Source: a virus (lineage: Duplodnaviria > Caudoviricetes). From it: DNA of 38,935 nt. The notes under the pieces are model-generated. The model saw only the letters and a list, made by a program, of their open reading frames with translations. It made no database searches and had not been told where the DNA came from. The DNA is taken from the IMG/VR virus record IMGVR_UViG_3300023267_000006, positions 1 through 38,935 of that record. One strand, written 5' to 3'. This document shows positions 2,950-34,484 of this stretch, piece after piece. A program made the translations under genes and the position numbers. Each line of letters opens with the position of its first letter. The stretch's first letter is position 1.

Positions 2950-3174
2950 TCAAAGAGCAAAATTTTTATCAGGTGTCGATACCAGGATACTTTTTACGTC
3001 GATACCGATCTCCCGGCATATCTCCGAAAGCAGTTCATATGAAACACTCTCACCCTTTTCGGCCCGGTAGATCGTCATTTTAGTAACGCCCAATGTTTTA
3101 GCCAGTTCCGTCTTGGTTGTCGCTTTCTTTCGAGCGGTAGCTAGCAGCTCTGGATTGTAGTGTTCTGCGTTCAT
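2950..3174 (-). CDS. Cro-like XRE HTH regulator
   Basis: TKTELAKTLGVTKMTIYRAEKG XRE HTH; divergent from the repressor. Confidence 0.85.
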   Translation of the reverse strand: MNAEHYNPELLATARKKATTKTELAKTLGVTKMTIYRAEKGESVSYELLSEICREIGIDVKSILVSTPDKNFAL

Positions 3175-3184
3175 CGTTCTAAAT

Positions 3185-3273
3185 ATTTATCACAAATTAA
3201 AAACAGAGGTCAACATAAAATGTTAGGTAATCTCTCTTGTAATGTTACGTTGGGTTATCCAACAATCAATGTT
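3185..3273. promoter_or_regulatory. Divergent cro/repressor control region with operators
   Basis: AACATAAAATGTT (3212-3224), a half site (3234-3246) and AACAATCAATGTT (3261-3273); minus-strand TTGACC at 3213-3208. Confidence 0.7.
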
Positions 3274-3708
3274 ATGCCGTCATTGCTGCCTAAATCGCAT
3301 TGGGAAGAATTCGGAGCGTGGATCAGAAAGATGCGCCGTGACGCCGAATTAACACAAAAGCAAGTAGCAACGAAAGCCGAAATTCATGAGGTCCAGCTCG
3401 CCCGGATTGAAAAAGGCGAAAGCGGCACAAAGCGCGAAACGGTGATAGCTATCGCCAAGGCGATCGGCATTGACGTGTCACTCACACTAAACAAAGCGGG
3501 CTTTGCTACGGTCGATACTCCCGGGCTCGTAATCCCGCCATATCCTAAGCGGCCTAAAAATGTCGCAGAATTCTTAGATGTACTGAGTACGCTAGGTGAG
3601 TTCGAATTCGCGGGTGATCTCAGCAAATTTACCGAAGACGATTTTGCCGAATTACTTGAAAGGATCCGCGCCGACGTGGAGATAACCGTCAAGAGGAAAA
3701 ATAGATGA
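3274..3708 (+). CDS. CI/ImmR-like XRE repressor without an autocleavage domain
   Basis: LTQKQVATKAEIHEVQLARIEKG HTH; too short for an S24 domain. Start revised to ATG 3274, which has no SD and may be leaderless. Confidence 0.85.
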   Translation: MPSLLPKSHWEEFGAWIRKMRRDAELTQKQVATKAEIHEVQLARIEKGESGTKRETVIAIAKAIGIDVSLTLNKAGFATVDTPGLVIPPYPKRPKNVAEFLDVLSTLGEFEFAGDLSKFTEDDFAELLERIRADVEITVKRKNR

Positions 3709-3938
3709 CGTCGGATAAATTACCCGAACCGCCCGAAAACGCTTTGATAATGAACATTAAAATTACAAAGCCAGAACCTTTTGAATACTCAGCGATCAAC
3801 GACGGTGAAACGTGTCTGGTCTGCAAGAATGCCGACGGGCAAAGATCGGATCATCCGTCTGGATTGCCGACGGCTCCTAATCCTCAATGCACAAGCCCCG
3901 CCGGTTGCCGGTGCATGATAGTTGAAATAAACGACTAG
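3705..3938 (+). CDS. Stand-alone MuF-like Cys-rich domain, paralog of the portal C-terminus
   Basis: ATGA overlap with the repressor gene; 25/52 ungapped identities to the last 52 aa of 24461..26602, with all 5 Cys conserved. Confidence 0.8.
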   Translation: MTSDKLPEPPENALIMNIKITKPEPFEYSAINDGETCLVCKNADGQRSDHPSGLPTAPNPQCTSPAGCRCMIVEIND

Positions 3939-3946
3939 CTAAAAAT

Positions 3947-4351
3947 ATGAAAATACTCTTACCTCTTTTTATTTTATTTTCAACCATCACGGCATTTAGC
4001 CAAACCAACCTGCCGGATAAAGGTTCGCTTGCCGATATAAAAGGCAAAACCAAGATTTACATATCAGCCGACGCCATTAATTCCAAGTACATAGAGTCTG
4101 AAATCGTCAAGCATAAGAGTTTGTCTCTCGCTAAATCTGCCGACACTGCCGATTTCTTTATTGAATACAAATCGATCGAAACCACTTACGCATCTAGCCT
4201 ACATCTACCGATCGAGACCGGGCAGATCGATGTGTATTTCTTTCGCGATAAAAAGAAAGTGATCGTCTGGAGTAAAGGTGATACCAAAGGCAATAAAGGA
4301 CCGGCACCGTCACTGTTAAAGCAGTTCCTCAAAGAATTCGAAAAGAAGTAA
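3947..4351 (+). CDS. Secreted/periplasmic protein, lysogenic conversion candidate
   Basis: Sec signal peptide MKILLPLFILFSTITAFS|Q; located in the lysogeny operon. Confidence 0.7.
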   Translation: MKILLPLFILFSTITAFSQTNLPDKGSLADIKGKTKIYISADAINSKYIESEIVKHKSLSLAKSADTADFFIEYKSIETTYASSLHLPIETGQIDVYFFRDKKKVIVWSKGDTKGNKGPAPSLLKQFLKEFEKK

Positions 4352-4353
4352 CT

Positions 4354-4404
4354 TTGACACCGCAACGGAGCGTATTTTAAGATAAATTCATGAACATTGT
4401 TTCA
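4354..4404 (+). promoter_or_regulatory. Promoter for peptidase-integrase with a downstream palindrome
   Basis: TTGACA(4354)-N18-TAAGAT(4378); TGAACATTGTTTCA at 4391-4404. Confidence 0.5.
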
Positions 4405-4426: not shown

Positions 4427-4903
4427 ATGCACATACTACTAAACAGGATGAAACGCCCTTTTCCCCAGCTAAACTTTCAACCATATACGTTCGAGGACGT
4501 TAAAAGGATCGCCGAAAAAGAACGCATCAATCTGACCATCTGCGATTACGACGACGATGTTCTCGGTTACTACTGCACTCGCAAAACTGAAAAGCAGACC
4601 AAGAAATTTATTGTCATCAATCAAAAGCTTGATGAGATAAATCGTACGTTCGTCGGCCTGCATGAACTCGCTCACCATTTTCTGCACATTCCGGCATCTG
4701 CGCGGCAATGGTTGTACTGCAGTCGCAATGCAAACCGGATCCACGCGAAAAATGACTGTGAAGCCAATTCATTTGCACTGATCGCCATGATACCGCTCTG
4801 GATGATGATCGATCTCGACGCCACTGGTTATCAGGATATCGACCCGGTACTTATGAAGTTCTGTATTCAGCGCAAAAAGCTCTGGGAAAAATTCGCCCTC
4901 TAA
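4427..4903 (+). CDS. ImmA/IrrE-family Zn metallopeptidase
   Basis: FIVIN...RTFVGLHELAHHFLH (HExxH) and a downstream EANSFA motif. Confidence 0.88.
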   Translation: MHILLNRMKRPFPQLNFQPYTFEDVKRIAEKERINLTICDYDDDVLGYYCTRKTEKQTKKFIVINQKLDEINRTFVGLHELAHHFLHIPASARQWLYCSRNANRIHAKNDCEANSFALIAMIPLWMMIDLDATGYQDIDPVLMKFCIQRKKLWEKFAL

Positions 4904-4905
4904 AA

Positions 4906-6099
4906 ATGGCAATCAAGAAATATTTCGTCAATAAGCCAAAAGACGGCTACCAGTACGATCGCAAAGAGAATAAGTATTTCTCCTGGGGATACGACATATG
5001 GCTGAATGGTGAGCGGGTCCAAGAGCGGGGCTTTCTCACTCGCGGCCATACAGAAGAGGCGGTAAAAGCCCTGCGCGAAGATGCTAAGAACGAAAGGCAC
5101 GGTATCACCAGTCGCAAAGACACGCCGTTTTTGATCGAACTCTTTCAACGAAAATTAAATACAATGACGCCCGGACCGGAACGGGCTCGAGCGAAACGTG
5201 TATTTAAAGTCTTTTTGTCATTGCTGCCGGATAAGTTAAAGGTTATAGATCTCAAAACCGCTCACATGAACGATTACAAAGAAAAAAGAGAGGCCGACGG
5301 TGTTAAGCATTCGACCATCAAGCGGGAAATGGTTCCGATCATCGAGACGCTTAACAACGCTGATCAGTATTTCATAGAACTCGACAGCTACCGGCCGCCG
5401 CGCAAACCTAAACTTTCGATCTCTAAAACACGAAAAACTACAACGATCACCATTGATGCACGACGAAAGATCTTGGGTTATCTATTTACGCATCAAAAAG
5501 ACGGTGAAGACAGACGGTTGCCGGCGGCACGAAGACGCGTAGGGCTCTTCCTGCAATTCTGCCTACTCACAGTATCGCGCCCGGGCGAAGTCGCAGCGAT
5601 ACGCCGCTCTGATGTAGATATGGATGCCTGTATCATCCTGATCAAAGGTACTAAGACTCAAAACGAAAAACACTCTACGCGAGAGCTGCCAATTACAGCA
5701 ACCATGCGCGAGATCTTGCTCGAAAGATTCGAAGAGAGCCCGGGCGATTATTTGTTCACAAAATTTGGAAAGGTAACCGCCCGCATGCGTCAACGATTAA
5801 AAGAAGCCTGTGAAGCCTGCGGCATCAAATACGGCAAATTCGACCCTGACGGCATTATCTTTTACACCGCGCGCCATACTGCCACATCTGTTCTCGCTCA
5901 CAGTAACGAAGTCGACACCAAAACTGCTGGGGATTTCACAGGGCATAGTGATGAAACCATGACGCTTTACTACACACATTCAAATGCAAAAACACTTGGA
6001 ATTGCGGGCGACGTATTGGAACGCGAAATGGGCAGAAAATTGCTAGATGGAGAGTTTATGGAGAGCGAACCGGACAAAAAAGAAAGCCGTCATTCGTAA
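4906..6099 (+). CDS. int: Tyrosine recombinase/integrase
   Basis: Catalytic R (SRPGE), K (GTKT), YTARH (HxxR variant), GHS and Y (TLYYTH); adjacent att site. Confidence 0.93.
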   Translation: MAIKKYFVNKPKDGYQYDRKENKYFSWGYDIWLNGERVQERGFLTRGHTEEAVKALREDAKNERHGITSRKDTPFLIELFQRKLNTMTPGPERARAKRVFKVFLSLLPDKLKVIDLKTAHMNDYKEKREADGVKHSTIKREMVPIIETLNNADQYFIELDSYRPPRKPKLSISKTRKTTTITIDARRKILGYLFTHQKDGEDRRLPAARRRVGLFLQFCLLTVSRPGEVAAIRRSDVDMDACIILIKGTKTQNEKHSTRELPITATMREILLERFEESPGDYLFTKFGKVTARMRQRLKEACEACGIKYGKFDPDGIIFYTARHTATSVLAHSNEVDTKTAGDFTGHSDETMTLYYTHSNAKTLGIAGDVLEREMGRKLLDGEFMESEPDKKESRHS

Positions 6100-24460: not shown

Positions 24461-26602
24461 TCAAACAACTACAGCCACGTGAATACATCGACACCGATCA
24501 CCGCCGTCACAATCGGGATTTGGGGCCGCAGGCAAGTCGGCGGGATCGTCTGCCGTTTCGCCGTCAGCATCGCCGCAAGGATTGCATGTATTGGCGTCCA
24601 AGATCGCCGAATACTCAATGTGATCTAGCTGATCAATATTATCTTTGATCTCATCGTCACGACCTTTAGAAATGGCAGCATTGACGGCACTACCGGCGAT
24701 TTGATCGATATACTTTTCGCTCTGAGCGGTTAGGGTCTCTAACAATTTCTCTAACAAATAATCGTTTAAGAGTTTTAGAGTTAGATACTGATTTACTGCC
24801 CGTGAAGTGATCTCGGTGATCAGTCGAGAAACCATGCCGTCGGTAAGTTCGTCCAGATATTCAATCCAATCAGTGATATCGGCTTTCTGGAATTCGATAA
24901 ACAAATTCCCTTTAGCCGTCTGCTGTACCGTGATCTCTTCGATAATCTGCTGCTTACCGGCTTGATATGCCGAACGCAGGGCTTTAGCCAATTCTTTACG
25001 TAATTTCGGGTCCGGCGTCAGTGTGAGCGTGTGAGCGGTTTCAGATGTGAGATTATCAAGCTTGTTTGCGGCCTGCTGAATGAGATCAAGACGAAAACGC
25101 TTGAGGATCGTGATCGCTTTATCTCTTTCGCTGTCGTAATCGGCAACGATCTTTTTGAGATCGATAATCAATTCGACGCCGCGCGGCTCACGGCCCAAGG
25201 TAAGGCCGTCTAAATCAAAAGTTTTTTTTTCGAGATCTTCGAGCGATTCCGGTAACGCTTTTGGCGGTGTGGGCTCGGGCAATGCCGCAGGCTCTTTACC
25301 CGCCGGCACTTTTTGCGTAGCTTCGATGGCTCGATTCTCAGGAGATAATGAAACCACGTTGATCGGCTGAATGTAATAATCGCCTTTCGGGTCTGCGATC
25401 TGACCGGTAGCCTGGCGAAACTCGTTTAAGGTCCAACCGCCCGCCTTAAAATTCTCCCGGGCCCGCTTATGGATCTCTTCAACATCTTCCTGCAGAAATG
25501 CAACGTGCGATATATCATAAGCCACACGAACACGGTCCGCACGGATGTTTTCTATCTCTTCGAACTCGGGCAATACGAACCAGGTAAGCCATTCGCGCAT
25601 TACCGCAAGCTCACCCGATATTTTGTTATCCCAGAAATTACGCAGATCGGCTTTAGCTGTAGCGTTTGCCGTAACATGCAGTAACCCGACGTATGCACCA
25701 ACTAAATTAGGCGGTACGCCGAAGACAGAGCAAATACGGCTTTCGAAACGTCCTGAAAGCGAATCGGCTGCCAGCTCATCAAGATTACTGCCGATCTTTT
25801 GATAATCGGCGTTCTGATCGAGTACCGCGATGCCTTTTTGGTTCGAGCCGCCGCGCGAGTATTTCTTTCTCCACTTTGCCTGTAGCTCTTCGCGTTTTGT
25901 CTCAGAAAGATTCGAATTCAAGATCTTCAAGATACCTGACGGCGTACCATCGCTCTCAAAAAACGCATCGATATAATCAGAAAGCCCGAGATCGGCATTT
26001 ATAGACTTGAGAGCAGCACTAAGCGGGGCGAACCCGCCGAACTGGTCCATAAGATCAGGCCGCCGCCGAATGATCAGGTCTTCTTTTTTGATCGGTACAC
26101 GTCGACCGTCTTTCTTGATGTATTCATAGCTGACGATCTCGCTATTAGAGCGATCGTACACCGGGCGTACACGCGTCGGCGGTAATACAGTCAGGGTTAC
26201 CGGGATACCCGCACTCGAACGCTCAAGGTGCCCGTAAAATCGTCCGATTCCCTGCTCAGATTGCACCATTAGCTTGCGCACATCCCGGCCGGTCTGATTC
26301 GGATTCGGACGCTTGAATAAAGCCGGTAAAAGATGCCCCTCTTTCTTTTCCCAGACGCCTTTGGCGTTTTTCACCTCAACAATAATCTCAGCATCGTTCA
26401 TCACGTCGGCGATCTTGTTAATGCAAGAGAAAACCAGTTCATGGTTACGATAAGCGGTAAACGCGGAATTTCCGTCGTAGCGGATACGTGAAGACGTGCG
26501 ACTTAAGCCAAATTTCTCCCAGATCGATACATCCGTAAGAGATAGGGCCTCAGAGCTTTTCGTTCCAAATGCAAAGTTTTTGAGATCAAGTAAAAGACCC
26601 AT
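24461..26602 (-). CDS. Portal protein (HK97-type) fused to a MuF-like minor head domain
   Basis: VFSCINKIA, RPNP and ICSVFGVPP portal motifs; Pro-rich linker; C-terminal YSAILDANTCNPC...CRC. Confidence 0.9.
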   Translation of the reverse strand: MGLLLDLKNFAFGTKSSEALSLTDVSIWEKFGLSRTSSRIRYDGNSAFTAYRNHELVFSCINKIADVMNDAEIIVEVKNAKGVWEKKEGHLLPALFKRPNPNQTGRDVRKLMVQSEQGIGRFYGHLERSSAGIPVTLTVLPPTRVRPVYDRSNSEIVSYEYIKKDGRRVPIKKEDLIIRRRPDLMDQFGGFAPLSAALKSINADLGLSDYIDAFFESDGTPSGILKILNSNLSETKREELQAKWRKKYSRGGSNQKGIAVLDQNADYQKIGSNLDELAADSLSGRFESRICSVFGVPPNLVGAYVGLLHVTANATAKADLRNFWDNKISGELAVMREWLTWFVLPEFEEIENIRADRVRVAYDISHVAFLQEDVEEIHKRARENFKAGGWTLNEFRQATGQIADPKGDYYIQPINVVSLSPENRAIEATQKVPAGKEPAALPEPTPPKALPESLEDLEKKTFDLDGLTLGREPRGVELIIDLKKIVADYDSERDKAITILKRFRLDLIQQAANKLDNLTSETAHTLTLTPDPKLRKELAKALRSAYQAGKQQIIEEITVQQTAKGNLFIEFQKADITDWIEYLDELTDGMVSRLITEITSRAVNQYLTLKLLNDYLLEKLLETLTAQSEKYIDQIAGSAVNAAISKGRDDEIKDNIDQLDHIEYSAILDANTCNPCGDADGETADDPADLPAAPNPDCDGGDRCRCIHVAVVV

Positions 26603-31289: not shown

Positions 31290-31871
31290 CTACGCTGCGA
31301 TCAGCTTTGTAAGGTTCTCGGATAAAAGCCCGAGATCCTGAGTTTTATTTACAACAGCGATACCGCCAGTTGCCGCGGCAAGCTTTCGCAGGAAATTACG
31401 CCCAGGCCCGGTTTCATCGCCGACAAAAATAGTGTCGATTTTACTTTTGAATTTCGACGCGACGGAGAGCGTCTTTGATTCGTTATCCGGTTCGCCATCT
31501 GATATCAGGACCAATCGAATATCGGTGTTATCGGCCATCAGCATCATTTGCAAAGCCGCAACCATATCTGTCATACCGCCCATGTGTAGCGGAACGCCCG
31601 ACGGTGAAAACTGAGCGTTGTTTGAAAATGCACCTACTGCGATCTCGCCCGGCATTTCGTTCTGTAATCGCTCGAGCTGTTCACATGCGGCCTTATACCG
31701 CGATTTATTTTCGCCGGCGTCCGGCGTGTCCATACTGCTTGATACGTCGACCATTACGAACGCTTTCACGCCCATAAAACCCATCGCGATCGAAGTGTTA
31801 TTTTTCCGTGCTACCGCGCCAAGGCTGCCCGCCACGATCTGATTATTGCTTCCCGCTTTTCTAGTGTTCAT
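31290..31871 (-). CDS. vWA-domain protein
   Basis: MIDAS DVSSS, GMTDM, LISDGEP and LRKLAAATGG motifs. Confidence 0.88.
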   Translation of the reverse strand: MNTRKAGSNNQIVAGSLGAVARKNNTSIAMGFMGVKAFVMVDVSSSMDTPDAGENKSRYKAACEQLERLQNEMPGEIAVGAFSNNAQFSPSGVPLHMGGMTDMVAALQMMLMADNTDIRLVLISDGEPDNESKTLSVASKFKSKIDTIFVGDETGPGRNFLRKLAAATGGIAVVNKTQDLGLLSENLTKLIAA

Positions 31872-33187: not shown

Positions 33188-33491
33188 ATATCCATCGCGG
33201 TATTATTAGGCTCAAAAAGCATCGAATTGTCTGCCCCCCCCCATCTGGATTTATTGCCGAATTAAAAAGTTTATGTTTGTAATAGTGCGTTCTAGCCATT
33301 TCCAGTACGGTTGATTGTCTACGGAGGCCTAACGGTTTCTCTTCACCGCACACAACACATTTAACGGTGTCGGCTTCGCCCGCGATCGAACAACGAATAT
33401 GCTGCCAGGACGAACCGAGATTTTTAACCTTGCTCCACAGAATGCGAAACGAAATCTTTTTCGTCTTTGACTTCTTTTTGATTACATCCAT
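33180..33491 (-). CDS. Basic C2H2-like zinc-finger protein
   Basis: CVVC...HYYKH; start revised to the ATG overlapping the end of the upstream gene. Confidence 0.5.
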   Translation of the reverse strand: MDVIKKKSKTKKISFRILWSKVKNLGSSWQHIRCSIAGEADTVKCVVCGEEKPLGLRRQSTVLEMARTHYYKHKLFNSAINPDGGGQTIRCFLSLIIPRWIYE

Positions 33492-34369
33492 GCCATGCTC
33501 CAAGATTCGTCGGCCCAAAAGCTCACCATTATTTGGCCGGTTTCGTTTGTAATATCTTCCCAAGCGAGAATTTCTTCAACGACGATCACGCCCAGTTCAC
33601 GCGTTGCTCGGACGGTAAGCATTCCGCAGCGAAGCGTCGGTATGAACGTCGTGTATTTATGAAGTCTCGCCGGCCCGTTCCCACTGCCCTTAGCCATTGC
33701 TTCGAACATCAGGCCGGCGTTGTATTTGTTTCTCTCGAGCGGACTGCTCAGGATCTGGTACGCGTCCTTTACGCTCTCGAACATTTCGCGGGCCTGAGGC
33801 TCACGGCACACATCCGGGTGCCACTGACGAGCTGCACGTTTGTAAGCTTTCTTAATGTCCAGATCAGACGCGGCTTTATCGACACCCAAGACGCCGTAAA
33901 GCGTAGCCGGAGTTGTCGCGTCGACTTGTTTGAACCACTTTCGCAGCACTTTTTCTGGAATCTTTGCATTCCAACCGCCGTTTGCGTGTACGCTCGACGC
34001 TTCGTTTTTACAGTTCGCGACGTAATCCGCTTGAAAGGTGATCTCGAATACCTTTTCGGCTGCGGCTATCACCGTCGGCATCGTGACGTCACATGAATAA
34101 GCTGCGTCGATCAGTTTCTTAAGAACATCCGCGTACTGCCTTGAAACCAGCCAGCATTTAGAATTTGGATCCCATTTTCGCGAGGTCGACGGTATCGAAT
34201 CTTTGAGCGCCGTAACGAACGTCGCCGAGTACGGAGTGTTAACTTTTAAGCCGCCATTCTCAGCCGTGACCGAGATCGATTTACCGCTAAAGTTTGATGT
34301 GCCGGAACCGCGTGAACAGACGAATAAATTCCCCTGATTCGACCCCTGATATTGTGCGTAAATTGCCAT
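33482..34369 (-). CDS. J-domain (DnaJ-like) protein with N-terminal HARP-like domain
   Basis: LYGVLGV...IKKAYKRAARQWHPD...AYQILS (intact HPD); upstream TPYSATFVTALK...RKWDPNSKCWLV. Confidence 0.85.
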   Translation of the reverse strand: MAIYAQYQGSNQGNLFVCSRGSGTSNFSGKSISVTAENGGLKVNTPYSATFVTALKDSIPSTSRKWDPNSKCWLVSRQYADVLKKLIDAAYSCDVTMPTVIAAAEKVFEITFQADYVANCKNEASSVHANGGWNAKIPEKVLRKWFKQVDATTPATLYGVLGVDKAASDLDIKKAYKRAARQWHPDVCREPQAREMFESVKDAYQILSSPLERNKYNAGLMFEAMAKGSGNGPARLHKYTTFIPTLRCGMLTVRATRELGVIVVEEILAWEDITNETGQIMVSFWADESWSMAWM

Positions 34370-34436
34370 TATTTTCGCCTCATTTCCTGTTTTTCCTAAA
34401 ACTCTCCAAAGCCCCATGTTTACTACGTTTCGCCGC

Positions 34437-34484
34437 AAAGTATAAAGATATACTCTCTATATAGGGGCTATACCTTTATACTTT
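34437..34484. repeat. 48-bp imperfect palindrome, copy B; candidate origin/priming site
   Basis: AAAGTATAAAG...CTATATAG...CTTTATACTTT, one gene downstream of the primase-helicase. Confidence 0.8.

Follow-up and report, generated by a model that had tools for sequence, protein, structure and literature searches.

Why would a temperate phage keep, between the repressor and the ImmA-like protease of its lysogeny region, a free-standing copy of a cysteine knob that it already carries at the end of its portal protein? The window, the whole stretch of 38,935 nucleotides analysed here (IMGVR_UViG_3300023267_000006; genome G000), is an entire virus record, 97% complete. The phage is temperate and tailed, and profile matches identified a terminase, a 713-aa portal, a prohead protease and an HK97-type capsid protein. 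Pyrinomonadaceae and Chloracidobacterium MAGs hold the closest cellular relatives of the gene in question, orf77, and the phage's host was therefore taken to be a member of the Blastocatellia. The lysogeny genes of G000 run in the order cro (minus strand), cI, orf77, a 134-aa protein resembling a signal-peptide protein, an ImmA-like M78 protease and an integrase. The original prediction described orf77 as a mimic of the phage's own portal-fused MuF Cys domain. The features concerned are as follows.

2950 to 3174, minus strand: Cro-like HTH gene, divergent from cI (Pfam and PHROG matches)
3274 to 3708, plus strand: cI/ImmR-like HTH repressor, its stop overlapping the orf77 start (Pfam and PHROG matches)
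3705 to 3938, plus strand: orf77, free-standing MuF Cys-knob gene, 77 aa (open reading frame, homology, dN/dS)
3705 to 3779, plus strand: Pro-rich leader of orf77, residues 1-25 (structure model, and leader homology to an ORF of genome G632)
3780 to 3935, plus strand: five-Cys knob of orf77, residues 26-77, the C-terminal half of the MuF/gp7 core (alignment, model, profile)
3947 to 4351, plus strand: 134-aa protein with an N-terminus that looks like a signal peptide by eye (homologs after the slot in G004 and G632)
4427 to 4903, plus strand: ImmA/IrrE-like M78 metallopeptidase (Pfam and PHROG matches)
4906 to 6099, plus strand: tyrosine integrase (Pfam and PHROG matches)
24461 to 26602, minus strand: portal-MuF fusion, 713 aa (Phage_portal match)
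24464 to 25213, minus strand: MuF region of the portal, helical bundle plus Cys knob (structure model)
24464 to 24619, minus strand: portal-fused Cys knob, paralog of orf77 residues 26-77 (alignment)

An alternative start for cI is present at an in-frame ATG at 3220. A promoter scan returned four sites where chance alone predicts 5.2, and none of the four would serve cI. One sigma70-like site, at 4354-4383, lies just 5' of immA, so immA and int perhaps have a promoter of their own, the site count being not above chance. Positions 1-125 and the last 300 or so bases of the window both fall inside a 27-nt tandem repeat encoding 9-residue Gly/Ser-rich units. Since both ends, and likewise the start of the G632 contig (L129), break in the same repeat gene, the genome is probably circularly permuted and was broken at the repeat. 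The phage also encodes a DnaJ-domain protein (33482-34438) and a VWA-domain protein (31290-31871), as does MW202444.1.

The relationship of orf77 to the portal was borne out. Residues 26-77 align without gaps to portal residues 662-713, with 25 of 52 positions identical and all five Cys kept (E 2e-14 by tblastn within the window; E 1.7e-14 in a search of the phage's own genome). The E-Y-S codons that had been quoted as evidence of selection (GAA TAC TCA versus GAG TAT TCG) are correct, and codons differ at 18 of the 25 residues common to the two knobs. Third positions agree at 14 of 52 codons, and the synonymous sites are saturated (pS 0.82) at a pN of 0.35. The coupling to the repressor was confirmed as well, the ATG of orf77 at 3705 overlapping the TGA of cI in an ATGA. 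A dN/dS check, proposed at the outset, gave values well below 1: about 0.17 for orf77 against the copy in genome G003, 0.26 for a second phage/island pair (a third pair was saturated), and 0.03-0.14 among three copies on host chromosomes (L098, L099 and L119). Judged from these comparisons of sequence, orf77 is a real, selected, free-standing MuF Cys subdomain.

Profile searches matched the domain weakly. The portal matched Phage_portal at E 1e-42 and Phage_Mu_F weakly (residues 623-706, E 0.007, under the cut-off), and orf77 had no match in Pfam or PHROG. The match of orf77 to TIGR01641 (gp7) was weak (profile positions 58-106 of 109, E 0.017, 15.5 bits against a cut-off of 39.65); its relatives reached E values down to 3e-6, with weak matches spanning positions 56-106 of 109. 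When placed on a profile of fused MuF proteins, orf77 covered only positions 191-244 of 246, and the helical N-terminal body was absent. The AlphaFold model of orf77 shows a beta-strand, a short helix and a beta-strand in the knob (pLDDT 84-93), this being the one short helix overall, and a leader of low confidence (pLDDT about 55). The top rows of a BFVD search with this model were minor capsid or MuF proteins (probability up to 1.0, E 0.03 or weaker), none reaching E 0.001. The MuF region of the portal was modelled as a single rigid unit of helical bundle and knob (pLDDT 95, pTM 0.91). Searches of solved structures with the orf77 and portal MuF models gave no match (best Z 2.2), and neither did a search of PDB sequences with orf77. 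From its Cys pattern, the knob likely binds a metal.

A profile search with orf77 returned 636 matches. Among the best 150 of these, 63 proteins were at least 600 aa long and 26 were no longer than 120 aa, most of the short ones looking like pieces of fused proteins. Fifteen proteins, the window copy included, were classed as free-standing; six have genomic context, and for the other nine the class rests on an N-terminus unlike the MuF helix. One further protein, P0011, was left unclassed, and all counts of free copies are lower bounds. A 'longer' homolog search returned none at E 0.001, though fused forms exist. Scans of viral contigs with the single protein or a narrow alignment gave no match, and broader scans gave fused or full MuF forms only (80 of 80 listed, with 217 confirmed, then 3 of 3 and 6 of 6). 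Samples of genomes drawn at the level of class, family, genus and phylum contained 10 of 401, 10 of 401, 2 of 191 and 2 of 401 profile-matching genomes, respectively. Short frames were seen among them only in G003 and G004, both previously found, and in G005, which is new and whose family and order are represented by one genome each. The knob is rare among the sampled genomes.

The contexts of the free copies fall into three kinds. The first is a second, distant Blastocatellia prophage, in genome G004 (L101), which sits at a tRNA-Leu and also carries a portal-fused knob. Its genes follow the order cro, cI, knob, exported protein, ImmA, integrase as in the window, and its knob is likewise ATGA-coupled to cI; ImmA and integrase are only 41-42% identical to those of the window. 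The second is the G003 copy (L100), directly 3' of a tRNA-Arg and followed by a frameshifted signal-peptide gene. Beside this tRNA lies a match to what we take to be the IHF-site consensus, and the site is a decaying island remnant; the stretch after tRNA-Arg(CCT), about 1 kb (L100:9858-10885), consists of the knob gene and the frameshifted gene. By eye, the G003 and G004 copies seem to begin much as portals do, but many proteins have amphipathic starts of this sort, and the likeness was not counted as evidence. The third kind comprises L098, L099 and L119/G005, in which a zinc ribbon is fused to the knob and the gene directly follows an ABC-ATPase gene, with host genes around. Nothing homologous to a lysogeny or head gene of the window was present in the stretches fetched around these three. 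Overall, such a CxxC-CxxC zinc-ribbon fusion is present in 6 of the 15 free proteins. An Atlas feature search additionally returned Chloroflexota zinc-ribbon clusters of 98-104 aa (up to 558 members, scores 0.93-0.94), which may be the same knob fusion, the match being at the level of features.

We then asked whether orf77 resembles its own portal more than it resembles others. Identity was compared over a 50-column alignment, from which five long proteins whose motif did not parse were left out. The orf77 knob shows 50% identity with the portal knob of its own phage, 52% with the portal knobs of W01 and G090, and 58-66% with four other free copies. For the G004 copy, the figures are 56% with the portal knob of the same prophage and 60% with another. 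Co-variation of the free copy with the cognate portal-MuF, expected if orf77 mimicked its own phage, was therefore rejected for both the G000 and the G004 copies: other portals are as close as the cognate one.

A tree of 81 different knob rows over 50 columns was poorly resolved. It placed 13 of the 15 free copies on one weak branch (62/93), apart from their cognate portals, and placed P0089 within the G090/W01 portal clade (97/92), so that free copies must have arisen at least twice. Fused and free forms alike retain Y28-S-A, D33, the five Cys, P58-N-P and R69. Two positions separate the forms: Gly64 occurs in 66 of 66 fused knobs versus 1 of 15 free ones, and E or D at position 35 in 13 of 15 free versus 2 of 66 fused, the free set including a host quartet and a phage quartet that are not independent and the E35 count being partly query-biased. 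The idea of a mimic of the phage's own portal domain thus gives way to a separate lineage of free copies with two diagnostic substitutions. Many portal-MuF fusions (L017, L020, L025 and L049-L092) carry an extra conserved extension of 170-180 aa after the Cys knob.

The slot between cI and immA is variable. The closest relative of the window, G632 (portal 75%, cI 75% and ImmA 64% identical), has in this slot (L129:3319-3450) a 43-aa acidic, Pro-rich ORF without the knob, the fused knob being present only elsewhere in that genome. This ORF is homologous to the orf77 leader (score 67, reached by 0 of 5000 shuffles), has ATGA overlaps with both cI and the next gene, had no match in NCBIfam, and perhaps functions as a micro-protein or serves to couple translation. 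Decay of a second copy of the knob's latter half was rejected as the origin of the leader, since 1081 of 5000 shuffles scored as high. The knob is thus present in two of three homologous modules (G000 and G004), a pattern typical of accessory cargo. Because G004 and also P0003, P0006 and P0157 carry leader plus knob, its loss in G632 appears from these sequences to be a simpler reading than a gain.

The downstream 134-aa protein had no family match in Pfam, PHROG or PADLOC searches. Proteins of this exported type are 39-66% identical across G000, G004 and G632, with weak relatives in the cI-immA modules L131 and L168, and are candidate superinfection-exclusion proteins. In G089, a gene that looks TIR-like by eye lies downstream of a cI-immA pair (L167:2627-3223, reversed strand), which suggests that the region is a hotspot for defence cargo in Pyrinomonadaceae prophages.

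A search for short MuF-C ORFs beside cI, immA and int had been proposed. The distant immunity region of G004 provides a second case. ImmA gave 69 matches in 62 of 401 genomes, and the cro/cI/M78 protease/integrase layout is common in Pyrinomonadaceae, whereas the knob was absent within 1.5 kb of all 30 other ImmA loci fetched from these matches. Additionally, of 13 phages or prophages that carry a fused knob of portal size, only G000 and G004 have a second knob copy; none was found in G001, the G002 fragment, W01, G632, G043, G090, G113, G310, G421, G475 or G578, many of the 13 being incomplete.

Based on this analysis, the reading that we favour, with confidence somewhat short of even, is that orf77 is an interference protein, acting on related portal-MuF phages by spoiling either the building of their heads or their infectivity. 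It would be translated together with cI, and hence be present in the lysogen and off once Cro takes over at induction. The protein would fold around a metal ion via the conserved Cys and, having kept the YSA-x-x-D, PNP and CRC surface of all portal-fused knobs, could compete for the head-building partner of that surface; the lost Gly64 and Asn35 likely reflect lost packing against the MuF helical body. The progeny of a superinfecting relative would then be poorly infectious, like SPP1 lacking gp7 or TP901-1 lacking MCP1. As a decoy, orf77 would be broad and generic, not matched to its own portal.

Several observations favour interference. Its long-term retention on host chromosomes at one locus, after the ABC-ATPase gene (L098, L099, L119), points to a benefit for the cell, and only a role that benefits the cell accounts for its being kept in prophages and on host chromosomes alike. 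Loss of MuF proteins cuts infectivity: the available text of PMC6316719 gives about 25% of gp7-less SPP1 virions as infectious, and that of PMC4493119 gives about 3e2 lysogens for TP901-1 MCP1 mutants versus 8e6. Furthermore, assembly blockers encoded by prophages exist (PMC10884400 and PMC11364771, in the parts available). The G004 prophage keeps gene order and ATGA coupling despite its divergent ImmA and integrase. Interference is also supported by purifying selection among the free copies (dN/dS 0.03-0.26), by the cargo-like presence of the knob in two of three homologous modules together with the TIR-like gene of the L167 module, by a model fold that matches MuF minor capsid proteins with core residues common to fused and free forms, and by the at least two origins that the tree forces.

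Other results argue against it. The free copy does not co-vary with the cognate portal, the second copy is limited to 2 of the 13 fused-knob phages and prophages, and SPP1 gp7 is dispensable for assembly according to the same part of PMC6316719. The two systematic substitutions (G64, E/D35) would equally fit exaptation to an unrelated job. In the portal model (pTM 0.91) the native knob packs tightly against the helical body of the same protein, so that a free copy would have either to outcompete an intramolecular partner or to bind elsewhere. No match to orf77 was found in PADLOC. A wider proposal, to which we give clearly limited credence, is that on more than one occasion prophages and their Blastocatellia hosts excised the knob from portal-MuF proteins and made of it a broad anti-phage protein, poisoning the heads of related phages and later domesticated by the host, possibly with the larger Chloroflexota zinc-ribbon family included.

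The alternative that survives best, although we consider it rather unlikely, is that orf77 is an exapted small zinc or redox module with a role in cellular or lysogen physiology apart from virion assembly, its MuF ancestry being mere history. A separate lineage (13 of 15 on the weak 62/93 branch) with diagnostic substitutions, the zinc ribbon fused in 6 of 15 copies and the position of host copies among housekeeping genes would all suit such a role. However, the YSA-x-x-D/PNP/CRC signature is as strictly kept as in virion copies, and the knob travels as cargo in two prophages and one tRNA island; host copies, moreover, are rare (one new genome, G005, in the genome samples), unlike a housekeeping gene.

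Improbable, in our judgement, is a counter-defence decoy that titrates a host sensor or protease of the portal-MuF knob and so shields the phage at infection or induction. Portal-sensing immunity does exist (Avs; PMC11364771, available part), and an operon expressed early would be a fitting place for a small free mimic. Such a decoy should track the cognate portal, which orf77 does not, and the strong selection on host-chromosome copies would be left unexplained.

A still smaller likelihood attaches to orf77 as an accessory regulator of the cI/ImmA switch, through a zinc or redox input or as a decoy ImmA substrate. The knob is translationally coupled to cI in both prophages, and ImmA-type enzymes (family M78) are zinc proteases. 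Genome G632, however, with its cI 75% and ImmA 64% identical, has the leader peptide only, so orf77 is dispensable for the switch; the knob does not regularly accompany cI and ImmA, being missing from G632 and from 30 of 30 other ImmA loci. Host and island copies have no cI or ImmA homologs nearby. The original suggestion of a sensor or titrator linked to ImmA is weakened by the same results. Lastly, we regard a neutral relic of an old portal duplication as very improbable: the knob is missing from the closest relative and the G003 copy adjoins a frameshifted gene in a decaying island, but synonymous sites are saturated, all Cys are kept, the frames are open and dN/dS is well below 1 in every measured pair.

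Whatever its role, the MuF Cys subdomain had no matching solved structure here, and a naturally excised, selected version of 50 residues offers a probe for its study. Residues common to fused and free knobs would predict the partner face, and the two lost in free copies the face packed on the helical body. If interference as we propose it is true, head assembly or infectivity would join the tail-blocking defences already known, a route would be traced by which a virion gene becomes prophage cargo and then a host gene, and the target of orf77 would show what the MuF domain binds. Taken together, the arrangement appears recurrent and selected, and decoy-type interference is plausible.

In comparison with MuF and SPP1 gp7 proteins (PF04233, TIGR01641), orf77 resembles the C-terminal half of the gp7 core and has a homologous Cys subdomain, but has no helical N-terminal body and falls under the profile cut-off. 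According to the available part of PMC5576092, muf genes occur in about a third of tailed phages, about 85-87% of them close to the portal or terminase gene, and a phage hardly ever has more than one; orf77 lies instead between cI and immA, about 20 kb from the head module. Some muf genes at a distance from portals are listed in the supplements to that paper, which may be relevant to the novelty of the arrangement. The literature covered, mostly the main text of open articles, described no free-standing MuF Cys knob, whether within a lysogeny operon or as a host-chromosomal gene. The 'MuF-C' of PMC5512222, in the part available, is a different, PBECR-type domain, and orf77 is not PBECR. Relative to ImmR/ImmA lysogeny modules, the window has the same cro/cI/M78 protease/integrase layout, likewise flanked by variable genes; what differs is the cargo, a domain of virion origin that none of the 30 other ImmA loci examined had.

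The mode of action that we propose for orf77 is that of Tab (of a Pseudomonas prophage) and Tai (of PICI, P4 and prophage elements), small proteins of resident elements that spoil the progeny of an invader. No match to orf77 was found in PADLOC, Pfam, PHROG or PDB-sequence searches, and Tab and Tai are perhaps absent from those libraries. By location alone, orf77 is likewise in a prophage accessory or lysogeny slot, coupled to cI in G000 and G004. In the portions of PMC10884400 and PMC11364771 available, Tab and Tai target tail assembly and have counter-defence partners, whereas the proposed target of orf77 is the head; and they are not described there as fragments of the virion protein they target, whereas orf77 is itself virion-derived.
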